Shown piece by piece: positions 1,849-11,943 of a stretch of 21,469 nucleotides of DNA. Origin of the DNA: Planctomycetota bacterium (GTDB taxonomy: Bacteria; Planctomycetota; B15-G4; JADJEK01); contig JBGAIQ010000079.1 in assembly GCA_044225365.1 (NCBI GenBank), forward strand, positions 1 to 21,469. The letters run 5' to 3'. Position numbers and translations under genes: made by a program. The notes below the pieces were generated by a model, which ran no database searches, had not been told where the DNA came from, and was given only the letters and a program-made list of their open reading frames with translations. The first letter of the stretch is position 1, and every line of letters starts with the position of its first letter.

Positions 1849-3510
1849 TCAATTGTGGAAGAACAGGTCGATACGACCGGTCTTCACGTTGGCGGTAGTG
1901 CCGATCATGCTCGCGACCGCAAGGTCGAGGAAACCGTCGCCATCGAGGTCTCCGAGTGCGCAGTCCCACGCGAAGTACTCGCCGCAGGTGTAGGTGGGAC
2001 TCTTCAGCGTATGGTCGGTGTGGAAGAACGGGCCATCGACCATGTACAGCAAGCCGGGTCCGATTCCCACGCAGTCGTTCACGTCCTGCTTCGCGCCGTA
2101 GTTGCCGAAAACGAGTTCGGGATATCCGTCGCCGTTCAAATCCCCGTGAACGACGTGAGGTCCGATCAGGCCGCCGCCGTTGATCTTGGGCACGACGTGC
2201 GAAGCGCTGAATCCGGGTCCCTCGAAGATCCGAACCGGATCGCCCGAGTTCGAAGTCACGACCAAGTCCGCGTCACCGTCGCCGTCGACGTCGGCCACGT
2301 CGAGCCCGGTTCCGAGCTGGGAGTTCTCGGCGGGGGCGGGCGCAAAGATCGTTTGCACGACTTGCAGGCTCGGCCCACGAAGCAGGTGCACCGCTCCGGC
2401 GTTCACCACTCCAGACGCCCCCGGACCATCGTAGAGTCGGCTCGACTCGACGATGTCGGTGATGCCGTCGTGATCGAAGTCCGCCGCCATGAGAACGGAA
2501 CCGAATTGATCGTCGGCCTTCGGCGTCGGATTCTGGATCGACTGAGTCGGCGCGAAGTTCGGCCCCGCGAACACATCGATCAAGCCCGCCGACCCGAGAA
2601 GGCCGACGTACGCTCGCGGACGTCCCGCGGCGATGGCGAGTGATCCGCTCGCAGCGAAGTCACCGACCGCGAGCCTGGATCCGTACTCGCCAGGGAGCCC
2701 TTGTTGCCAGCCGACGATCGTCGCGGCGGGAGTCGTCGCGGGCGACGTTCCGCCCTTGAAGACGTAGATTCGCGAGAGTTGATCGACGGTCGAGCTTCCT
2801 CCGGAGGCGACGACATCGGCTGCGCCATCGCCATCGACGTCCGCAACCTCGAACGGCAATCCGAAGTACGGCTCTGCCGTGGGCTGCGGCGAGTCGAGCA
2901 CGATCGTCTGGGAGAAGGTTGGGCCAAGAGCGACTTCGATGTGCACCGCGGGCGTCAGCTTCGACGACCAACGGTAGAAGACATCCATCGCACCGTCGCC
3001 GTTGAAGTCGCCGAGGCGAACCCCATCCATGAAGCCTTCGCTCTGGATCGCGCCGGAAAGATCGACGGGACCGAGCGACAACGAGGATGTCGTCGTGAAC
3101 GATGGATTCGCCACCGTCACCGTTGCAGCGCTCGTGAGAACGTTGTGACCGATGACCGCCTGGCCTGTCACGACGAGGCCGAGCGTCGTCGGGGTCGGCG
3201 CCGGCATCTGGACGTCGAACGAGGTGTTCACGCCAGGGAACCCCGGGGGAAACGGCGGCATCAGGAACGGAACCACGGGCAGCGGCACGTAGAACTTGCC
3301 GTATGGAGTCGAAAGCCCGGGAAGTTGCGGTGCTGCGCCGAGCAGCAGAATCGCCTGCTTGCCGGACGACGGCTGATCGGCCGTCACGAGAATCGTCAGC
3401 AATCCCGGCACCTGCGGCGATTCGTGGATCGTCAGTTCCGCCGCGGATGCGACGAACGCGGATCCCAACAGCGCCAATGCTGCACACGAGGAGCGAATGC
3501 GAAGCGACAT
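1849..3510 (-). CDS. Exported FG-GAP/VCBS repeat (integrin-alpha-like beta-propeller) protein, 553 aa
   Basis: ATG at 3510 with GGAGG RBS and signal peptide MSLRIRSSCAALALLGSAFVASA. Ca-binding repeats DFNGDGAMD, DVDGDGAAD, DFDHDGITD, DVDGDGDAD, DLNGDGYPE and DLDGDGFLD, plus FG motifs. Confidence 0.9.
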   Translation of the reverse strand: MSLRIRSSCAALALLGSAFVASAAELTIHESPQVPGLLTILVTADQPSSGKQAILLLGAAPQLPGLSTPYGKFYVPLPVVPFLMPPFPPGFPGVNTSFDVQMPAPTPTTLGLVVTGQAVIGHNVLTSAATVTVANPSFTTTSSLSLGPVDLSGAIQSEGFMDGVRLGDFNGDGAMDVFYRWSSKLTPAVHIEVALGPTFSQTIVLDSPQPTAEPYFGLPFEVADVDGDGAADVVASGGSSTVDQLSRIYVFKGGTSPATTPAATIVGWQQGLPGEYGSRLAVGDFAASGSLAIAAGRPRAYVGLLGSAGLIDVFAGPNFAPTQSIQNPTPKADDQFGSVLMAADFDHDGITDIVESSRLYDGPGASGVVNAGAVHLLRGPSLQVVQTIFAPAPAENSQLGTGLDVADVDGDGDADLVVTSNSGDPVRIFEGPGFSASHVVPKINGGGLIGPHVVHGDLNGDGYPELVFGNYGAKQDVNDCVGIGPGLLYMVDGPFFHTDHTLKSPTYTCGEYFAWDCALGDLDGDGFLDLAVASMIGTTANVKTGRIDLFFHN

Positions 3511-3582
3511 GATTCCTCCACCTTGATTCCACCCGTCCTGCGACTCGAAACGTCTGCGGACGGTCCATCGAAACTCGATGCG

Positions 3583-3588
3583 AGTATA
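3583..3588 (-). promoter_or_regulatory. Candidate -10 element (TATACT) for the FG-GAP gene
   Basis: 5/6 match to TATAAT in the rsmG/FG-GAP intergenic region. Confidence 0.5.
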
Positions 3589-3605
3589 ACCGATTCGTCG
3601 CCGAG

Positions 3606-4346
3606 TCACCCCAGGGGCTTGCGCTCGGGGATTCCGGCCGGGCGCGGATATGCGAGCTGCGTGCGCTTCACCTTGTCGACCTGGACGACACACGCCTTGC
3701 GCCCCGGGAAGAGTTCATCGAGCGGTTCGATCGAGGCTTCGCCGCCCAGCAGGCGGAGGGCCTGCTTCGCGCCGACGAGTTCGTCCTCGGCCTTCTCACC
3801 CTTCATCGCGAGGAAGACTCCTCCGACCTCCACGAGCGGCAGCGCGAGCTCGAGCAGGACGCTCATCCGAGCGACGGCGCGCGACACGACGAGCGGGTAA
3901 CGTTCGCGAGTGCTCGGATCGCGACCGAGATCCTCGGCGCGCTTGCTGAACACCTGGACGTTCTTGATCTCCAGCGATTCGACCGCGGACTTCAGGAAGT
4001 CGGCCTTCTTCAGCGTCGCTTCGACGAGCACGAAGCGGCGATTCGGCCGCGCGAGGGCGAGAGGAATCCCGGGGAAGCCGCCGCCCGATCCCAGATCGAG
4101 CACGGCGCCGGTGACACCCTGATCGTCGAGCGCGTCGACCCACGGCAAGAGGCTGAGGCTGTCGAAGACGTGGCGTTCCCAGACTTCGTCGAGATCCTTC
4201 GCCCGCACGAGGTTCATTCGCTCGTTCGTTTCGAGCAGGAGATCGACGAAGCGCGCCATGCGGTCGAGGATCGCAGCGCCTTCGCCGGTGGAATCGTCGA
4301 GGAAGTCCTTCGCGCGCGCTCGCACGGGGTCGGGGATCGGCGTCAT
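3606..4346 (-). CDS. rsmG: 16S rRNA (guanine(527)-N7)-methyltransferase RsmG
   Basis: Motifs NERMNL, RHVFDSL, SAM-binding LDLGSGGGFPGIPLA, RAED, VSRAVA, AMKG and C-terminal YPRPAGIPERKPL. Confidence 0.96.
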   Translation of the reverse strand: MTPIPDPVRARAKDFLDDSTGEGAAILDRMARFVDLLLETNERMNLVRAKDLDEVWERHVFDSLSLLPWVDALDDQGVTGAVLDLGSGGGFPGIPLALARPNRRFVLVEATLKKADFLKSAVESLEIKNVQVFSKRAEDLGRDPSTRERYPLVVSRAVARMSVLLELALPLVEVGGVFLAMKGEKAEDELVGAKQALRLLGGEASIEPLDELFPGRKACVVQVDKVKRTQLAYPRPAGIPERKPLG

Positions 4347-4355
4347 GTTCGGTTC

Positions 4356-5483
4356 TCAGCCATTCGAGTCCAGGAGGACGGCGTCGCTCACGGCATCCTC
4401 GTTCGAGGGCGATGGGATCGGCGGGGGTGGAGCGTTCTCGTCGATCTCGCCCATCGCGATCCTCGCGATGTGTTCGTGAGCGGCCTTGTCCGTTCGCGCG
4501 AGCAGATAGGCCAGGCCGCCGCCGACTTGCTCGGAGGTCGGCGGAGTGAAGCGCGTCTGCAGCAGCGGATGGGCGAAGTCGGGCGAGTGGTAGACGTCCT
4601 CCGGGAGCGGTCGGTACCGGCACAGGAAATCGAGGTGCCAGACGAGGAAGAAGCGCACGCGGGAGTTGCCGTGGTCGTCGTCCCCGAAGTGCTCGCGCGC
4701 GAGCGAAACGTAGCGTCGAAGCAGAGCGAGCCGTTCGTTGGCGTCGAGATGGATCGAGCGGCCCTCTTTGATCTCGCGGAAGATCCACGGCTTGATGAGC
4801 GCGCCGCGGGCGGTCATGAGGGCGTCGGCGCCGCTCTTCGTCCAGCGTTCGCGAGCTTCCCAATGCGTGAGCAGGTCGCCGTTGCCGATCACGGGGATCT
4901 TCACGGCTTGCTTCAGTTCGGCGATCCGGTCCCAGTCGGCGGCCTTGCTGTAGCGCTGCTCCTTCGTGCGGGCGTGCATCGCGATCGCATTCGCACCTTC
5001 GCTCTCCGCGATCCTTCCGATCTCGACGAAGTTCTTGTGCTTGTCGTCGATGCCGAGACGAATCTTCACCGTGACCGGGATCACAACGGCCTGACGCATG
5101 GCGCGCACGAGTTCGGCGAAGCGCTTCGGTCGATCGAGCAGGGACGCGCCGAGGCCGCGATTCGCGATGAGGTCGATCGGGCATCCGCAGTTCAGGTCGA
5201 CGAAATCGGAGCCCATCTCCTCGGCGATCGCCGCGGCCTGGCCGAGCGAATCCGGATTGCGATCGGCGAGCTGCGCGCCAAACGGATGATCGAGTGGATG
5301 AGTTCGCAAGAGCGCGAGTTCGCCGCGCTTCCTCGCGATCACGTTGTAGGCGAGCGCCATCTCGCCGACCGTGACATCGCAGCCGAGCTCGCGGCAGAGT
5401 CTTCGAAAAGGCACGTTGGAGCCCTTCGTCATCGGCGCGAGGACGAGCTTGCCGTGGAAGATCTGCGCTGCGGTCAGGGGCAT
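4356..5483 (-). CDS. tRNA-dihydrouridine synthase, Dus3-like
   Basis: Motifs LAPM, DLNCGCP (catalytic Cys), PVTVKIRLG, MHART, ADWD, IGNGD and ARGALIKPWIF. Start ATG 5483 is preferred because the Dus fold begins a few residues later and a -10 box lies 7 nt upstream. Ends 9 bp before rsmG. Confidence 0.93.
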   Translation of the reverse strand: MPLTAAQIFHGKLVLAPMTKGSNVPFRRLCRELGCDVTVGEMALAYNVIARKRGELALLRTHPLDHPFGAQLADRNPDSLGQAAAIAEEMGSDFVDLNCGCPIDLIANRGLGASLLDRPKRFAELVRAMRQAVVIPVTVKIRLGIDDKHKNFVEIGRIAESEGANAIAMHARTKEQRYSKAADWDRIAELKQAVKIPVIGNGDLLTHWEARERWTKSGADALMTARGALIKPWIFREIKEGRSIHLDANERLALLRRYVSLAREHFGDDDHGNSRVRFFLVWHLDFLCRYRPLPEDVYHSPDFAHPLLQTRFTPPTSEQVGGGLAYLLARTDKAAHEHIARIAMGEIDENAPPPPIPSPSNEDAVSDAVLLDSNG

Positions 5484-5499: not shown

Positions 5500-5551
5500 C
5501 CCCGTTCTCGAACTGCGCAGGCATTCACTCATCAGAGAGGGACAACGCGAA

Positions 5552-5608: not shown

Positions 5609-7840
5609 TCACTGGAACTTGATGCTGACGGTGTCCGACACCTTGAACTTCTGGGTGTACTTCGGCGGTCCGCAGAAGGTGCCGGTCGCGTTCGAGGGCA
5701 GGACATCGATCGCTTGCAGCGCGATCGTGAAACCGACCAGCGTCGGAGAGCAGGGCAATTGCGAGCCGACGATCGTCGGGACGGAGAGGATCGAAACGAT
5801 GTTCACCCCGAGCTTGCACCCCACGGCCTGACCCGGGCACATTGCGACCGGTGCAGTCGGGAATCCGATGCAGAGGAGCGCCGTGGGGCTCGAGGCATTT
5901 CCGATCAACACTTGGAAGCTGCCGCCGACTTCGGCGGTGGTGCTGGTGAGTAGGAGCGGCTCGGGAGAACCGCATCCGGTTTGAACCGTCGACACGATCC
6001 CGCCCGGTTGGAGCGTGGAGCGCAGCGCGCCTTCGATGTCCTTCTTGCTCGAGGTCGGCGACGGGAGCGACCAGGTGAGGAGGACGTCGCCGCCCTTCTT
6101 GAACTGCGTCGTCACGACTCCGAGTTCGCTTTCGGTGAGTCCGAACGTGCCATGGGTTGCGGGACCATCGACGATCGTGACCTGGAATGGACTCGCCATC
6201 GAGGCGACCATCGTCGTGGTCGAGACCCGTTTCGACGTCACGAAGTCCGGCTCCTGATACGCGAACGTGAACCGACAGCCTTCGGAGCCAACGGCCGGAT
6301 CCGTCTGGTCCGCGGTTTCGGTCGGGCCGTTGATGAACTTCGTGAGATTGACCGCGCCGACCGAAGCGAGCGTACTCGCCGTCGGCGCGACGAGGAACGT
6401 GCCGACGATGTCGATGTCGCCGAGGGAAGATCGCGTCTCGCGCACGACCAGCCAGTTCGTCCCGTCGCCATCGACGTCGGCGTGGAATTCGTCGGCGAGC
6501 ACGTTCGTCTCGATGATCTGGAGCGCGCCGAGCTTGCTCCCGCCTTCGGAGACCATCTGCGCGTCGAGGAAGCGGTTCTGGGTTCCGAGTGTCTCCCAGC
6601 AGACGACGTAGCGGCCCGCGCTGCCCGCACTCTTCGAGATGCGCGCGCCGTCGACCAGATTGCCGGCGCCGAAGAAGACGTCGCTGCCGAGACTGTTGCC
6701 GAGTTCGTCGATCGCGCGGCCGTGGGTTTCATTGGTCCCGATGAGCGGGTCTTCGCTCCAGACGACGAAGAAGGGACGCGAGATGAGGTTCGGCGACGCG
6801 CCCACGTCCGGCTTCGTCTCGTTGTTGGCGCCCGTGGAGATGTCGAACGCCGCGGCCTGGACCCCGGTGGTCTCGATCCGCCGCCTCCCGCGGATCACGT
6901 TGTCCGAGAACAATGAGCCGTCCGAGAGCTGGTTCCACACGATCATGAAGCTGCTGCCATGCGCGGCGACCGCGGGATCCACGGTGTTCTCCGCCGTGAC
7001 CTCGACGGACAGGGTCTCGAGGAAGTTGCCGTCCGTGTCGAAACGGCGCGAAATGATGTCGTGGTCCGTCGCGGAGAACACGCGCTCGTACACCACGAGG
7101 TAGCTTTCGAGGCCGAACGCCGCGTCGGGATGGAATTCGTCCGTCGCGTCGACGGCGACCGTGACGTTCGCGATCAATGGATCGATGACGAGGGGATAAG
7201 CGGCGCTTGCGAGCGCAGCCGCCGGCACGCGCAGCGCGAGACGCCCGTTCGTCGATTCGACCGCGACGGCGCTCTGCCGACCCCTGGCGTCGACGAGCGT
7301 CGCATGGCCGTAGCGGATCTCGCCCACGCCTGGCATCGCGAAGCGCAGCCCCGTCGAATCCTCGCCCGCGGCCGCGAGATCGGTCTTGGATCCGAAGTCG
7401 AGGACCAGGTCCCCCTGCCCGAGCGGATGGTCGATCACGAAGATCTGCTCCACCTCCCCCGGCGCCAATTTCCAGCGCTCGATGATCGGGCCTCGGTCGT
7501 ACTCGACGACGTCGGCGCCGATCTGCGCAGCTTCGGGGCGAGCGAATCCGACGGGCGTGCCGCCGACGCTCATCCCCATGAGCGAGACGTCGAGCGTCGG
7601 CGTGCGGGGCGCCCGCGACCCGAATTGCGGGTGGTAGGTGGTGCGATCGGCCGCGAAGCGCATCTTCCAATCGGCGCCAAGCACCCAGAGAGTCCCGTCC
7701 GCCGCACGGTCGGCGAGCACGCTCTCTGGCAGTTTCTGCGCGAGCGCCTTCTCCACCGTCGCGGGGAGGTCGCCCGCGAACGAGGCCGTCGCGACGCAGT
7801 TCAGAGCCAGGGTGCACAAGAGCGCGATCGGGGGACGCAT
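5609..7840 (-). CDS. Large exported multidomain hypothetical protein, 743 aa
   Basis: GAGG RBS and signal peptide MRPPIALLCTLALNCVATASFA. N-terminal domain ends in YPLVIDP; central repeats (P-x-V/A...YLVVYE, FMIVWN, FFVVWS, YVVCWE, WLVVRE) suggest a beta-propeller; Cys-containing C-terminal module. Confidence 0.85.
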   Translation of the reverse strand: MRPPIALLCTLALNCVATASFAGDLPATVEKALAQKLPESVLADRAADGTLWVLGADWKMRFAADRTTYHPQFGSRAPRTPTLDVSLMGMSVGGTPVGFARPEAAQIGADVVEYDRGPIIERWKLAPGEVEQIFVIDHPLGQGDLVLDFGSKTDLAAAGEDSTGLRFAMPGVGEIRYGHATLVDARGRQSAVAVESTNGRLALRVPAAALASAAYPLVIDPLIANVTVAVDATDEFHPDAAFGLESYLVVYERVFSATDHDIISRRFDTDGNFLETLSVEVTAENTVDPAVAAHGSSFMIVWNQLSDGSLFSDNVIRGRRRIETTGVQAAAFDISTGANNETKPDVGASPNLISRPFFVVWSEDPLIGTNETHGRAIDELGNSLGSDVFFGAGNLVDGARISKSAGSAGRYVVCWETLGTQNRFLDAQMVSEGGSKLGALQIIETNVLADEFHADVDGDGTNWLVVRETRSSLGDIDIVGTFLVAPTASTLASVGAVNLTKFINGPTETADQTDPAVGSEGCRFTFAYQEPDFVTSKRVSTTTMVASMASPFQVTIVDGPATHGTFGLTESELGVVTTQFKKGGDVLLTWSLPSPTSSKKDIEGALRSTLQPGGIVSTVQTGCGSPEPLLLTSTTAEVGGSFQVLIGNASSPTALLCIGFPTAPVAMCPGQAVGCKLGVNIVSILSVPTIVGSQLPCSPTLVGFTIALQAIDVLPSNATGTFCGPPKYTQKFKVSDTVSIKFQ

Positions 7841-7998: not shown

Positions 7999-8562
7999 TC
8001 AGGATCCGTCGGACTTCTCGTTCGGCAATGGGAGGCCGAGCATGCCGCTCACTTCCTCGAGCTCGGGAGGCGGAAGGTGCTGGCTGTGGAAGTACCCGAG
8101 GATTTCACGCGACTCGCGAGCGCACGTCAGGAATGCGCTGCTTCCCTGCAGCCGGTAGCTGCTGTTCGATCGGAACTCGATCGCGGTCACCTCGTCGAAC
8201 GTCCAAGTCCATTTGCGAAAGACGAAGCCCAGCGCCGTCACCCGCCACTCGATCTTGCGGGTGAAGGGATCGAACGTCACGGACGCTCGATAGACCGCCT
8301 GCCAGAATCCCCAGAGGGCGAGGAGCAGTCCGGGGACGATCGCTCCTGCTCCCGTCGAAGGCTCGTTCTCCGTTCCCCCGTGGAGCGAGTACTCGATCCA
8401 CTGAACGGCCACGATCGTCGTGGGCAGCATCGCGATGAGTGTGACGAAGACCCCGAACGCCTTGCGCAGACCTTGCGTTCCTTCCACCGAGAAGGTGAGG
8501 ACTCGGGGCTCCGCCACCGTTTCGCTCGTGCGCGACGACATCGTGCGTTTCTTGCGAGACAT
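7999..8562 (-). CDS. Hypothetical membrane protein (2 TM segments plus a beta-rich C-terminal domain), 187 aa
   Basis: AAGGAG RBS. Hydrophobic segments AFGVFVTLIAMLPTTIVAVQWI and GAGAIVPGLLLALWGFW. The tail (SVTFDP..RKIEWR..WTFDEVTAIEF) resembles bacterial PH-like membrane proteins. Confidence 0.75.
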   Translation of the reverse strand: MSRKKRTMSSRTSETVAEPRVLTFSVEGTQGLRKAFGVFVTLIAMLPTTIVAVQWIEYSLHGGTENEPSTGAGAIVPGLLLALWGFWQAVYRASVTFDPFTRKIEWRVTALGFVFRKWTWTFDEVTAIEFRSNSSYRLQGSSAFLTCARESREILGYFHSQHLPPPELEEVSGMLGLPLPNEKSDGS

Positions 8563-8603
8563 CGTGCGCTCCTTCCGAAGATCGATCCACGAGATGGTCG
8601 GGG

Positions 8604-8609
8604 ATCCTA
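8604..8609 (-). promoter_or_regulatory. Candidate -10 element (TAGGAT) for the membrane protein gene
   Basis: TAnnnT immediately after the upstream stop codon, about 40 nt before the ATG. Confidence 0.35.
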
Positions 8610-8610
8610 C

Positions 8611-9609
8611 TCAATTCAACTTCGACTCACCGCCGACGGTGATCAGGTCTTGGAACACGTTGTCCGGCCCGAAGCCCGTATCGAGCGTGAAGTCGTCCTG
8701 GACGTCGATCGCCTCCAGCGTGAGCTGATCGAAGCCAGCGCCGAGCGAGATCGACAGGTCGTCGCCCACGCTGACGTGCTCGACCTGAAGGGAATCGACG
8801 CCCGCACCGCCGAGGATCGTGAGGTCGTTCGCGAAGGAGTCGCCGTCCACGAACGCGGTATTGGACCCATCGCCGAGTTCGATCTTGGTGTCGGCGGCGA
8901 ATTCTGTCTGCTGGATCTGGAAGAAGTCGGTCCCCTTTCCGCCACGGATGCGCGTCTTTGCTTCGAATTCGGCGCTGAAGAGGTTCACCGAGTTCGAACC
9001 GTCGCCCAGTTTGAAGTCGACGTCGCCGTCGAAGAGGCAGGGTCCTTGCGTCGCGCTCACCGAGTCATCCCCGGACGACCCCACGATCGCGAGCTTGTCG
9101 CCGAACTCCGCAGAATCGAACACGACGACGTTCGCGAGACCGAACGCCGGCTTGCCGAGGGTGATCTTGGCGTCGTCCTTCACCAGCGTGTTCCGAAGGA
9201 CGAGGATCGTCGAGTCGGCGTGGGCGTCGATTCGCAGGTCGTTCGAGATCGTCGAGTCGGCGACGGTCAGTTTGCACCCGTGCTCGGCGTCGATCCGTAG
9301 ATCGTGGGGGACCGTGACCGAGGAAATCGAGATCGTCGCGAATTCGTCGAGGTCGATCCGAATGTCCTTGGTGACGCCGAAGACGACGAACGTCGCGCCG
9401 CCGTTGATGGTGGTCGTGATCCCCGAGAGCAAGTGCGACGAGATCCGGAAGGAGCCGGGCGGACCGTTCGGACTCACGTCGAACGCGCACAACTCGTGCG
9501 CCGAGAGGCGCAGCGAGTGGTCCTTGACCTCCGCCGTGACGTCCGCCGCGTGGGAGATGGGGGAAAGGACGAGGGACGAAACGGCGAGCGAGAGTACGGT
9601 GAGTCGCAT
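8611..9609 (-). CDS. Exported glycine/aspartate repeat (beta-helix/beta-roll-like) protein, 332 aa
   Basis: ATG at 9609 with AGGAGG RBS and signal peptide [21 protein letters not shown]. ~22-aa repeats carry [46 protein letters not shown] and GFGPDNV. Confidence 0.85.
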
Positions 9610-9762
9610 GTCATCCTCCTGGGTTCGACCAGGATGGAGGCGGAGGAACGGGTGGCTTCCGACAGAGATTCTTGGAACTCGCCGTCGACGTCGGTTCGGC
9701 CGAAATCGTGGGCATCGATCACAGCGGTTCTTCGGATCCGCGGCGCTGCGGGGTGCACTCGC

Positions 9763-9768
9763 TATCCT
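9763..9768 (+). promoter_or_regulatory. Candidate -10 element (TATCCT) 6 nt before the GTG; probable leaderless start
   Basis: gcTATCCTggcggaGTG, with no properly spaced SD. Confidence 0.5.
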
Positions 9769-9774
9769 GGCGGA

Positions 9775-11943
9775 GTGAACTCGCAAAACCTCATCATCGC
9801 CGCCTTCACCGTCGCTTTGTTCACCGCTCCGCTGTGCGCTCAGACGCAGCTCCCGGCTCCGTCATCGCCGCAGAACCACCTCGCGGGCGAGAAGTCGCCC
9901 TACCTGCTGGAGCACGCCTCCAATCCCGTCGACTGGTATCCGTGGAGCGACAAACCGTTCGCGAAGGCCAAGGCGGAGGGCAAGCTCGTCTTCCTCTCGA
10001 TCGGGTACTCCTCGTGTCACTGGTGCCATGTCATGGCGCGCGAGTCGTTCGAGGACGCCGAGATCGCAAAAGTCCTGAACGAGAACTTCGTGTCGATCAA
10101 GGTCGATCGCGAAGAGCGGCCCGACATCGATGCCGTCTACCTCGCCTACGTCGAGGGTCGCACGGGATCCGGTGGGTGGCCGATGACGGTGATCTTGACG
10201 CCGGATCGGCACCCGGTGTTCGGCGGAACGTACTTCCCGCCGCGCAATCGCGCCGGCGATCCGGGGCTTCTCGAACTCCTGAAGGCCGTCGAGGACGAGT
10301 GGAAGAAGAACCGCGCGGAAGTGGAGCAGTCGGGCGTCGCCGCAGTCGAATTGCTCACGAAGCAATTGGCGCCGGCGGAGCGCGACGACTGGCCGCCCGA
10401 TGTGCTCGCGCGCACGGTCGCGTTGTTCGTCGATCGCGCCGAACTCGATGCGAAGACGCCGCCGAGGGGCCCGCTCTTTCCGCAGCCGATGATGCTCGAA
10501 CTCCTCCTCATCGAGTACGGCAAGAGCGGCGACAAAGCCGCGCTCGCGACGTTGAAGAACGTGCTCGATGCGATGGAGAACGGTGGTATTCACGATCCGG
10601 TGGGCGGCGGCTTCTTCCGCTACAGCGTCGACGGCAAATGGCTCGTGCCGCACTTCGAGAAGATGCTCTACGTGAATGCGCTGCTCGCTCGGCTCTACCT
10701 GCTCGCCTTCCAGGCGACCGGCGAGGCGCGCTATGCCGTCACGGCACGCGACATCCTCGACTACCTGCTGCGCGATATGCAGCTCGATGGAGGCGGGTTC
10801 GCCGCCGCCCAGGACGCCGACAGCCGCGGACCCGACGGTGCGCTGGAGGAAGGTCGCTATTACACGTTCACGCCCGACGAACTGCGCGCGAGTCAGAGTT
10901 CCGAGGTCGCGGATTCGATCGTCAAGATCTTCAACCTGAGTGACAAAGGTCACGTCGGAGGCCGCTCTGTCCCCAATCGAATGGGGAAGGCTGGGTTCGA
11001 ACCCGTGGAGATCGCCAAAGCGCGCGAGTTGCTCTTCGAGTTGCGATCCCAACGGCCGCGTCCGCGGCGCGATGACAAGGTGCTCGCCGATTGGAACGGT
11101 CTCGCCATCTCCGCGTTCGCACTTGCGGGCCGAGTGCTCGGCGACGCGCGATATCGGGTGGCCGCCCGCGGCGCAGCGGATTTCGTGCTCACCAAGCTGT
11201 GGGACGGAACGAGCCAGTCCTTGCTACGACGGTATCGCGACGACGACAGCGCGATCCCGGGTCAGCTCTCCGACTACGCGTATCTGTGCCAGGGCCTGCT
11301 CGATCTCTACTCGACCGACCTCGATCCCCGCGACCTCAACTCCGCGGTCGAGCTCTGCGACTCGATGATCCTGAAATTCTATGACTCGAAGCGGACCGTG
11401 TTCTTCGACACTTCGAAGGATGGCGATGCATTGATCGTGCGACCCCGGGATGGGCGTGACAGCGCGCTACCCGCACCGACCGCCATCGCGCTGCGTTGCC
11501 TCCTGCGAGTCGCGCGACTCACCGGGCGCGGGGATCTCGAGTTCGTCGCCAAGAGCTGCCTCGGTCTCTACGCCAACGAAGTGCGGACGTCGATCATCGA
11601 GCACGCGGAACTCGTACACGTGGCGGAAGAGCTGGCGACGAAGCCGCGCGAGATCGTCTTCGCGGGTACGCGCCATTCGAAGGGGCTCGAGGCCCTCCTC
11701 AACGCCTGGTACAGCGCGCCGCGCCCAGGATTCGTCGTCGCCTTCGCACCGGAGGACGACGATTCCCGCGAGCAGTGCTGGCGCATCGAGGATCTGATCG
11801 AAGGACGCATCCCACAGGAAGGCAACGCTGCCGCCTACGTGTGCGAGAATCGCGTCTGCCAGGAGCCGATCCTCGATCCCGAGAAGCTCGCGAATCTGAA
11901 GATCCCGACCGAACCGGATGCTGCGAAGAAGAAGGGTCCGTGA
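9775..11943 (+). CDS. Thioredoxin domain-containing protein, YyaL/SSP411 (DUF255) family, 722 aa
   Basis: Motifs [91 protein letters not shown] and [11 protein letters not shown] 9775 chosen because the track start at 9304 overlaps the opposite-strand gene. Confidence 0.93.

Follow-up and report, generated by a model that had tools for sequence, protein, structure and literature searches.

A bacterial dihydrouridine synthase of the Dus3 type, lacking zinc fingers, encoded in a Planctomycetota genome

A contig of 21,469 nucleotides from a Planctomycetota bacterium (JBGAIQ010000079.1, assembly GCA_044225365.1; 'the window' hereafter denotes this whole stretch) carries on its minus strand, at 4356..5483, a gene for a dihydrouridine synthase (Dus) that groups with the eukaryotic enzyme Dus3 (DUS3L) and apart from the bacterial DusA, DusB and DusC. 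The gene is likely to encode an active, stand-alone RNA dihydrouridine synthase dependent on flavin mononucleotide (FMN) and NADPH, orthologous to the catalytic and helical module of Dus3 and present beside a canonical DusB. Its predicted substrate is very probably tRNA, and by orthology the most likely target, with a chance somewhat short of even, would be the variable-loop uridine U47 (or one at 46-48). In Kasprzak 2012, eight Dus subfamilies are distinguished, Dus3 consists of eukaryotic sequences, and Dus3, DusB and DusC lie close to one another in clustering (PMC3674756). Later papers count three bacterial and four eukaryotic subfamilies and describe Dus3 as the ancestral eukaryotic Dus (PMC9775027, PMC11162810). 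A bacterial lineage placed with good support as sister to Dus3 changes this three-subfamily picture and bears on the source of Dus3.

The reading frame is intact, running on the minus strand from an ATG at 5483 to a TGA at 4358-4356, and specifies 375 amino acids (protein P0001); AGGGA lies a few bases 5′ of the ATG, and an in-frame GTG at 5528 is a possible earlier start that would add 15 residues. An earlier reading of the letters alone (the original prediction) had proposed a Dus resembling Dus3/DUS3L and had quoted a series of motif strings, every one of which was located in the 375-residue protein: GKLVLAPMTKGSNVPFRRLC at residues 11-30, GEMA at 40-43, NCGCP at 98-102, EQRYSK at 175-180, ARGALIKPWIFREIKE at 225-240, ERLALLR at 250-256, EHFGDDDHG at 264-272 and RFFLVWHLDFLCRYRP at 277-292. 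The Dus3 consensus strings that it had cited hold in aligned eukaryotic Dus3 proteins (Rozella, Polysphondylium, Pedinophyceae and Rhodelphis), which display LAPLTTVGNLPFRR..GADITCGEMA, GCPID, RTRQQRYSKLANWDY, ARGALIKPWxFTEIKE, EHWGSDxxG and RRFLLEWLSFLxRYxPxG. It had further claimed that the N-terminal zinc-finger region of the eukaryotic enzyme is missing, and this too is borne out. Since an in-frame stop stands just upstream of the GTG at 5528 and the upstream neighbouring gene ends at 5609, the open reading frame (ORF) can be extended by 15 codons at most, and since Pfam detects the Dus domain alone, with zf-CCCH_DUS3L (PF25585) absent, a zinc-finger region is ruled out.

The Pfam Dus family (PF01207 / COG0042) matches residues 15-272 with 240.3 bits against a cut-off of 20.4 (E 3.4e-71), and the Pfam scan of the 375-residue protein returned no other domain. 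The FMN-binding TIM-barrel catalytic domain (residues ~10-245; 4749..5456, minus strand), delimited by the Pfam match, a structural model and Foldseek, is followed on the same strand by a C-terminal helical domain (residues 248-345; 4449..4742), delimited by modelled helices and a profile test, and by a variable, low-confidence tail (residues 346-375; 4359..4448) that shows no consensus in an alignment of 51 bacterial Dus3-type homologs (A1). In A1, the columns Q71, N98, C101, K140, R142, H170, R172, G200, G202, D203 and K231-P232-W233 are invariant (51/51), N201 of the NGD motif is nearly so, and the invariant columns line up with their counterparts in E. coli DusB. They include Cys101 in NCGCP (codon 5181..5183, minus strand), aligned with the single Cys of the GCP motif of E. 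coli DusB and taken by us, from the Dus literature, to be the catalytic general acid. They also include Lys140 in VKIR (5064..5066, minus strand), aligned likewise and presumably the conserved active-site/FMN-site lysine of Dus enzymes, and His170 in MHAR(T) (4974..4976, minus strand), which corresponds to the HGRT/HART motif of Dus enzymes. An AlphaFold2 model built on A1 reached a mean predicted local distance difference test (pLDDT) score of 91.5 and a predicted template modelling score (pTM) of 0.91. It consists of alternating strands and helices forming a TIM barrel, then a helical domain with helices at 248-266, 270-287, 323-329 and 333-343, and then a disordered tail, with pLDDT dropping to 53 and then 39 in the last two 10-residue blocks. 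In a Foldseek search of the Protein Data Bank (PDB) the top 20 matches were Dus enzymes without exception, E. coli DusB (6EI9) being the best (E 2.3e-22, query TM-score (TMq) 0.63); the others were Thermotoga maritima 1VHN, DusC, Thermus thermophilus DusA and human Dus2, and after the Dus enzymes came old yellow enzymes and dihydropyrimidine dehydrogenase (DPD). With its active-site motifs intact and its two-domain fold, the protein, as judged from sequence and model, has all that is needed for Dus chemistry. No Dus3 structure was found in the PDB copy searched, either by sequence or by fold, and no paper on one in the literature search. A small soluble protein of 375 residues with a confident model would offer a handle on variable-loop recognition by Dus3, for which no structure is solved, as well as a direct test of the need for zinc fingers in site choice.

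Separation from the known bacterial subfamilies is first seen in scores against the profile hidden Markov models of NCBIfam, a comparison that had been suggested as a check. The highest score, 257.3 bits, comes from the DusB equivalog TIGR00737 and stays below its cut-off of 293.3, with a match covering profile positions 7-286 of 319; DusC at 133.9 bits (cut-off 395) and DusA at 125.8 (cut-off 269) are also below theirs. Five other proteins of the Dus3 clade, including a Polysphondylium Dus3, likewise score under the TIGR00737 cut-off. The genome (6.53 Mb in 103 contigs, 94% complete) holds a second Dus, a canonical DusB on contig C61, which scores 362.6 bits with TIGR00737 over positions 1-317 and carries RRHGAWY. 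It contains two Dus genes in all, none being a DusA or DusC equivalent above cut-off. A third, weak PF01207 match in this genome (G000:C66:19298-19702, plus strand, locus L003; 24.3 bits over profile positions 114-240) falls within an open frame of 757 residues that is probably another TIM-barrel flavoenzyme and no Dus. The DusB-type motif RKHxxWY is absent from the protein, as the original prediction had stated, and present in three DusB-type rows, namely the DusB of its own genome, that of E. coli and a Eubacterium Dus; its use as a DusB marker follows that prediction. The protein resembles bacterial DusB (TIGR00737; E. coli DusB 6EI9) in its two-domain fold, its similar length and the lack of extra domains, and E. 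coli DusB is its best solved-structure match by sequence too (146.5 bits). It differs from DusB, however, in a helical domain unrelated at profile level, in its lack of RKHxxWY, and in its coexistence with a true DusB in one genome.

Relatives were sought by an exhaustive phmmer search of 1.84 billion representative proteins, which gave 17,359 matches at E <= 0.001. The top 150 open with about 10 representatives of bacterial length (274-330 bits), and 93 of the 150 have an N-terminal extension of at least 150 residues ahead of query residues ~9-293. A CCCH pattern occurs in 56 of these 93, and zf-CCCH_DUS3L (PF25585) was detected in eight of ten proteins tested. Cluster names include the tRNA-dihydrouridine(47) synthases of Rozella allomycis and Polysphondylium violaceum, together with unnamed proteins of Rhodelphis and a pedinophyte. 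The eukaryotic Dus3 relatives score 200-260 bits, with 38-48% identity over residues 9-293, compared with 175 bits for the DusB of the same genome, 147 for E. coli DusB, 121 for DusC and 73 for DusA. At 197-213 bits, some DusB-type proteins of Lachnospiraceae fall in the range of the lower-scoring eukaryotic Dus3. Raw scores alone thus do not separate the groups, and trees and a domain-specific profile were needed. An exact-peptide-pattern search of genome contigs recovered four true relatives among 74 loci, mostly ordinary DusB, and the other 70 loci served as the DusB-type comparison set. Three proteins on the match list deserve separate mention. The top-scoring representative (330 bits), P0121 (671 residues; from a cluster of 77 members, one named from 'Candidatus Bruticola sp.'), is a purine-nucleoside phosphorylase fusion with a Dus3-type domain at 10-289 and PNP_UDP_1 at 456-662. 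The 850-residue protein of Rozella allomycis (P0131 / P0286) combines a short-chain dehydrogenase, the DUS3L zinc finger and Dus; it may be a merged gene model, and a 465-residue form stands in the same cluster. P0127 (447 residues, 298.5 bits in two matched stretches) was considered as a bacterial Dus3-type protein and rejected after it grouped with Lachnospiraceae DusB in a quick tree; its gene model may be chimeric or duplicated.

Characters shared with Dus3 were read from an alignment of the query, five bacterial-type relatives, the bacterial proteins P0186 and P0208, eukaryotic Dus3 (five rows), DusB-type proteins (three) and DusC. Common to the Dus3 and bacterial-type rows are GEMA (SEM/TEM in DusB), GCPID, R(E/Q)QRYS(K/R)xA(D/N)W, ARGALIKPWxFxEIKE followed by a 5-residue deletion, EH(F/W)GxDxxG, RxFLxWxLxFxxRYxP and an insertion of ~18 residues in the helical domain. 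In the query, the signature EHFGDDDHG...RFFLVWHLDFLCRYRP occupies residues 264-292 (4608..4694, minus strand) and is followed by the ~18-residue insertion, which has no DusB counterpart. Kasprzak 2012 describes LTTVGNPPFRR as specific to Dus3 and states that Dus3 does not keep the (T/S)EM motif of bacterial Dus (PMC3674756). At the latter place the query reads GEMA, as Dus3 does, yet it carries LAPMTKGSNVPFRR where Dus3 has LTTVGN.

The helical domain separates the groups sharply. A profile of residues 245-345 from the 51 bacterial sequences, applied with a threshold of 20 bits, recognized 55 of 56 zinc-finger (eukaryotic) Dus3 proteins (median 41.7 bits) and all 45 proteins from the P0186 search list. 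It recognized none of 72 DusB-type proteins (maximum 7.1 bits) and neither E. coli DusC nor E. coli DusA (0/1 each); P0208, at 14.6 bits, also fell below the threshold (0/1). A barrel profile separates far less, with a median of 257 bits for Dus3 against 210 for DusB-type proteins. By this test the helical domain of the protein is Dus3-specific. The proposed resemblance to Dus3/DUS3L is upheld by shared motifs, helical-domain profile and tree placement alike. The protein and eukaryotic Dus3p/DUS3L have a barrel and helical domain 38-48% identical, common signatures and a common superclade in both careful trees. They differ in the N-terminal disordered region and CCCH zinc fingers of the eukaryotic enzyme, missing from the bacterial one, in length (375 residues versus ~550-850), in the bacterial host and in the N-terminal motif (LAPMTKGSN versus LAPLTTVGN). 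The D47 activity of Dus3 is predicted for the bacterial protein by orthology alone.

Phylogenetic placement was examined in one quick tree and two careful trees. The quick tree comprised 111 rows and 357 columns (LG+C20+F+G4 with posterior mean site frequencies, PMSF): 15 close homologs (every eighth of the 119), 8 representatives of bacterial length, 4 named loci, 7 extra-domain or extension proteins, 28 of 56 zinc-finger proteins, 9 short hits and 35 of 70 DusB-type loci (the even-numbered ones). It placed the bacterial-type clade as sister to eukaryotic Dus3, with support of 93 in the Shimodaira-Hasegawa-like approximate likelihood ratio test (SH-aLRT). The careful trees, from which P0127 was excluded, were inferred by maximum likelihood (ML). 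Tree 1 used 64 of the quick-tree rows, 347 columns and the model LG+C20. In it, 21 bacterial-type rows, P0186 and 16 eukaryotic Dus3 form a clade with ultrafast bootstrap (UFBoot)/SH-aLRT support of 100/99 on a branch of 0.60, and the superclade enlarged by P0208 has 99/95. Eukaryotic Dus3 is monophyletic (100/100) with P0186, from a Pseudomonadota metagenome-assembled genome (MAG), as its sister (98/93), and 20 of the 21 bacterial-type rows fall in one clade (94/87). Outside the superclade lie E. coli DusB, the DusB of the same genome, 19 other bacterial Dus and DusA. Tree 2, with 61 rows and more relatives of P0186, recovered the superclade at 98/99 (99/97 with P0208), eukaryotic Dus3 again at 100/100, and a 9-row bacterial P0186 clade as sister to eukaryotic Dus3 (96/92). 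The catalytic domain, then, groups in these sequence trees with Dus3 to the exclusion of the other sampled subfamilies, and the minimal zinc-finger-less bacterial Dus3 clade that had been proposed is recovered at 100/99 and 98/99. Nesting inside DusB, the outcome named beforehand as one that would speak against such a clade, did not occur: the best tree uniting the 21 bacterial-type with 21 DusB-type rows costs 138.9 log-likelihood units, with a p-value of 2.4e-15 in the approximately unbiased (AU) test. Two candidate placements were abandoned. E. coli DusC joined the Dus3 side with weak support in the quick tree of 111 rows, lay in a polytomy in a quick tree of 64 rows and attached at 88/52 and 70/59 in the careful trees; it is best regarded as an unplaced long branch. 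P0389, P0390 and P0392, taken from the match list as members of the P0186 family, fell in the main bacterial clade in tree 2.

Several features of these trees weigh against the grouping. Of the phylogeny suggested beforehand, the part with DusA, DusB, DusC and Dus3 was run, and the trees are without Dus1, Dus2, Dus4 and archaeal Dus. One long DusA branch is the only distant outgroup, several rows deviate in composition, and bootstrap values in tree 2 were not yet fully stable. The AU group, in addition, was defined after the tree had been seen, though it matches the criterion of nesting inside DusB stated earlier.

When the trees are rooted on DusA, eukaryotic Dus3 lies among bacterial lineages, with P0208, the main bacterial clade and the P0186 clade branching successively below it. 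The relevance to the origin of Dus3 that the original prediction had seen is thereby supported, eukaryotic Dus3 being monophyletic and so placed. This nesting suggests, on the sequences compared, that the core of Dus3 came from bacteria and that the CCCH zinc fingers were a later addition. Among the sampled sequences, the sister clade nearest to eukaryotic Dus3 contains MAGs of Bradymonadales and Pseudomonadota. A bolder reading, which must be called tentative and rather unlikely, is that the bacterial proteins constitute a fourth bacterial Dus subfamily, true Dus3 orthologs acting as dedicated zinc-finger-free U47 reductases, and that the eukaryotic core was acquired from such a lineage before the last eukaryotic common ancestor. 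If true, it would overturn the view of Dus3 as an ancestral, eukaryote-only Dus, and the zinc-finger-less diatom and plant copies would represent a second, separate acquisition. The result is in any case not revolutionary, since the enzyme chemistry is ordinary and the Dus3 label has already been attached by pipelines. Most of these bacterial proteins bear the automatic name 'tRNA-dihydrouridine synthase 3' from the Joint Genome Institute (JGI), and bacteria-dominated clusters in the Atlas are labelled automatically as 'tRNA-dihydrouridine(47) synthase family protein', so that the resemblance is not new to databases. It is known to annotation pipelines and undescribed in print as far as the searches reach: the full-text search found no paper describing bacterial Dus3-type proteins, and supplementary tables outside that search may list such orthologs.

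The distribution of the gene is patchy. Close homologs (50-79% identity, 316-441 residues) come from metagenomes and MAGs labelled Planctomycetota, Vicinamibacteria/Acidobacteria, Solirubrobacterales, Betaproteobacteria, Phycisphaeraceae and Krumholzibacteriota, and the P0186 clade includes a Bradymonadales MAG. Within the family, 8 of 11 other genomes have an ortholog (>480 bits, 62-70% identical), against none of 29 genomes from other families of the order; at least one Dus-type match was found in 39 of these 40 relatives. Across the phylum, at E <= 1e-75, the gene occurs in 19 of 301 sampled Planctomycetota genomes and 14 of 238 genera. These counts indicate an accessory paralog. They also show that the gene often moves or is lost, and in that respect they favour a recent transfer from a eukaryote to bacteria with loss of the zinc fingers, in which case the protein would be uninformative on the origin of Dus3. 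Such a transfer is nevertheless very improbable: eukaryotic Dus3 is monophyletic at full support with a long stem (0.68-0.87), and no bacterial row is nested inside it in either careful tree. Moreover, members of the bacterial group span Planctomycetota, Acidobacteriota, Krumholzibacteriota, Actinomycetota, Pseudomonadota and Bradymonadales, and the GC content of the window (63-68%) is similar to that of the surroundings. As side observations, one Dus3-type match in Planctomycetota (G112:C15:33269-34330) contains one in-frame TGA, which could reflect a broken gene or an error in sequencing. Some zinc-finger-less copies carry eukaryotic labels: P0150 (diatom Nitzschia sp. RCC80, 587 residues, N-terminal extension of ~115 residues) lies inside the bacterial-type clade, and P0421, from a Pseudo-nitzschia-labelled transcriptome, adjoins it in tree 2. 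The marine metagenomic proteins P0128, P0130 and P0135, zinc-finger-less and Dus3-type with N-terminal extensions of 80-130 residues, also fall in the bacterial-type clade, and an ESM Atlas cluster of look-alike 432-residue proteins is 99% Eukaryota, mostly Streptophyta. These diatom, plant and marine copies may be organelle-targeted proteins of bacterial origin.

The case for tRNA as substrate is strengthened by two metagenomic members of the clade, P0132 (685 residues) and P0137 (670 residues), which are fused at their C terminus to the Pfam domain tRNA_bind (38.6 and 43.4 bits, respectively); Pfam detected no tRNA_bind in P0141, a close relative of both. These fusions count against the improbable alternative that the target is an RNA of another kind (rRNA, mRNA or some other small RNA) or the same uridine within a non-canonical substrate, as does the fact that characterized Dus enzymes all act mainly on tRNA. 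That alternative draws on the 9-nt coupling of the gene to rsmG, a 16S rRNA methyltransferase gene, an adjacency found in just 1 of 12 ortholog loci, and on eukaryotic DUS3L, which in one study crosslinks to mRNAs as well (PMC9176250). With tRNA as the substrate, the uridine would be flipped into the FMN site and protonated through Cys101, the docking orientation of the tRNA would be set by the Dus3-type helical domain, and the enzyme would act as an accessory second Dus alongside the canonical DusB of the genome.

The choice of U47 as the most likely target derives from the orthology of both RNA-contacting modules with those of Dus3. A substrate for it would be available: among the tRNAs of the genome with a 5-nt variable loop, 28 of 28 have U at position 47 (ARAGORN, 56 calls, some of which look doubtful). 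The genome has a TrmB-type gene, and a search for a DTW/TapT gene gave no match in the 94%-complete assembly. The idea that the Dus3-type gene and the DTW family, to which the enzyme for 3-(3-amino-3-carboxypropyl)uridine at position 47 (acp3U47) belongs, exclude each other was tried and dropped, as the counts give no signal: of the Planctomycetota genomes with the Dus3-type gene 3 of 19 have DTW, of the others 62 of 282. In two Planctomycetota genomes of one family a DTW gene lies 5-10 kb from the Dus3-type gene (G254:C20, 6628-7170 and 11699-12637; G191:C1, 5013302-5013844 and 5024173-5025189).

On the other side of the balance for U47 stand a possible competing U47-modifying enzyme, for which this DTW count leaves room, the commonness of U47 in bacteria generally and the possible contribution of the eukaryotic zinc fingers, missing here, to site choice. 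No experiment on any bacterial Dus3-type member was found in print. To these is added the behaviour of DusB, whose sites, according to two papers, vary from D17 alone in E. coli to three sites in Mycoplasma and to D17/D20/D20a/D47 for B. subtilis DusB1 (PMC9775027, PMC11162810). Site specificity thus shifts within Dus subfamilies, which makes orthology a weak predictor, and because a B. subtilis DusB-type enzyme makes D47, bacterial D47 needs no Dus3-type enzyme. DusB1, so far the one bacterial enzyme with demonstrated D47 formation, is like the present protein a bacterial Dus, with U47 among its sites; it is set apart by its description as a multi-site enzyme of the DusB subfamily (D17/20/20a/47) (PMC11162810). 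The same paper notes that m7G46 hides position 47 from AlkAniline-Seq. Since the present protein belongs to the Dus3 lineage, any D47 activity it has would be of separate evolutionary origin from that of DusB1.

The same shifts in specificity lend weight to another, rather unlikely possibility, that the protein is Dus3-type by descent and D-loop by action, that is, a second, partly redundant D16/17/20/20a synthase that would back up the canonical DusB or share the work with it. It would agree with a genome whose Dus complement is two genes, with nothing reaching the DusA or DusC cut-off, with the D-loop being by far the commonest location of dihydrouridine, and with B. subtilis, where two paralogs are partly redundant (cf. 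DusB2; PMC11162810). What argues for a different mode of docking is the helical domain, which is Dus3-type and unlike that of DusB. In solved Dus complexes this domain positions the tRNA. Furthermore, the gene is accessory (19/301 genomes), whereas dihydrouridine in the D-loop is near-universal.

The surroundings of the gene give less guidance. On the same strand, rsmG (GidB, 16S rRNA 7-methylguanosine (m7G) methyltransferase; 3606..4346, minus strand; Pfam GidB, 170 bits) starts 9 nt past the dus stop. Because of this short junction and because no terminator-like site was found between the two genes, dus and rsmG are probably co-transcribed in this genome. Gene neighbourhood was nevertheless discarded as a functional clue, since RsmG was found next to the ortholog at just 1 of 12 loci, eight of which had only ~1.5 kb of flank. 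Elsewhere in the window, 1849..3693 (minus strand) encodes a 614-residue FG-GAP repeat protein with a marginal match to TcdB_toxin_midN (25.0 versus a cut-off of 24.8, with no stretch passing alone), probably a case of repeat cross-talk. Upstream of dus, the ORFs 5609..7840 (minus strand, 743 residues) and 8077..9300 (plus strand, 407 residues) have no Pfam match at E <= 0.001; the former begins with a signal-like, hydrophobic N-terminus, and a weak relative of it adjoins the Dus3-type gene in L004/L085 (33% over 136 residues). Further on, 9304..11943 (plus strand) encodes an 879-residue protein with a Thioredox_DsbH (DUF255) domain.

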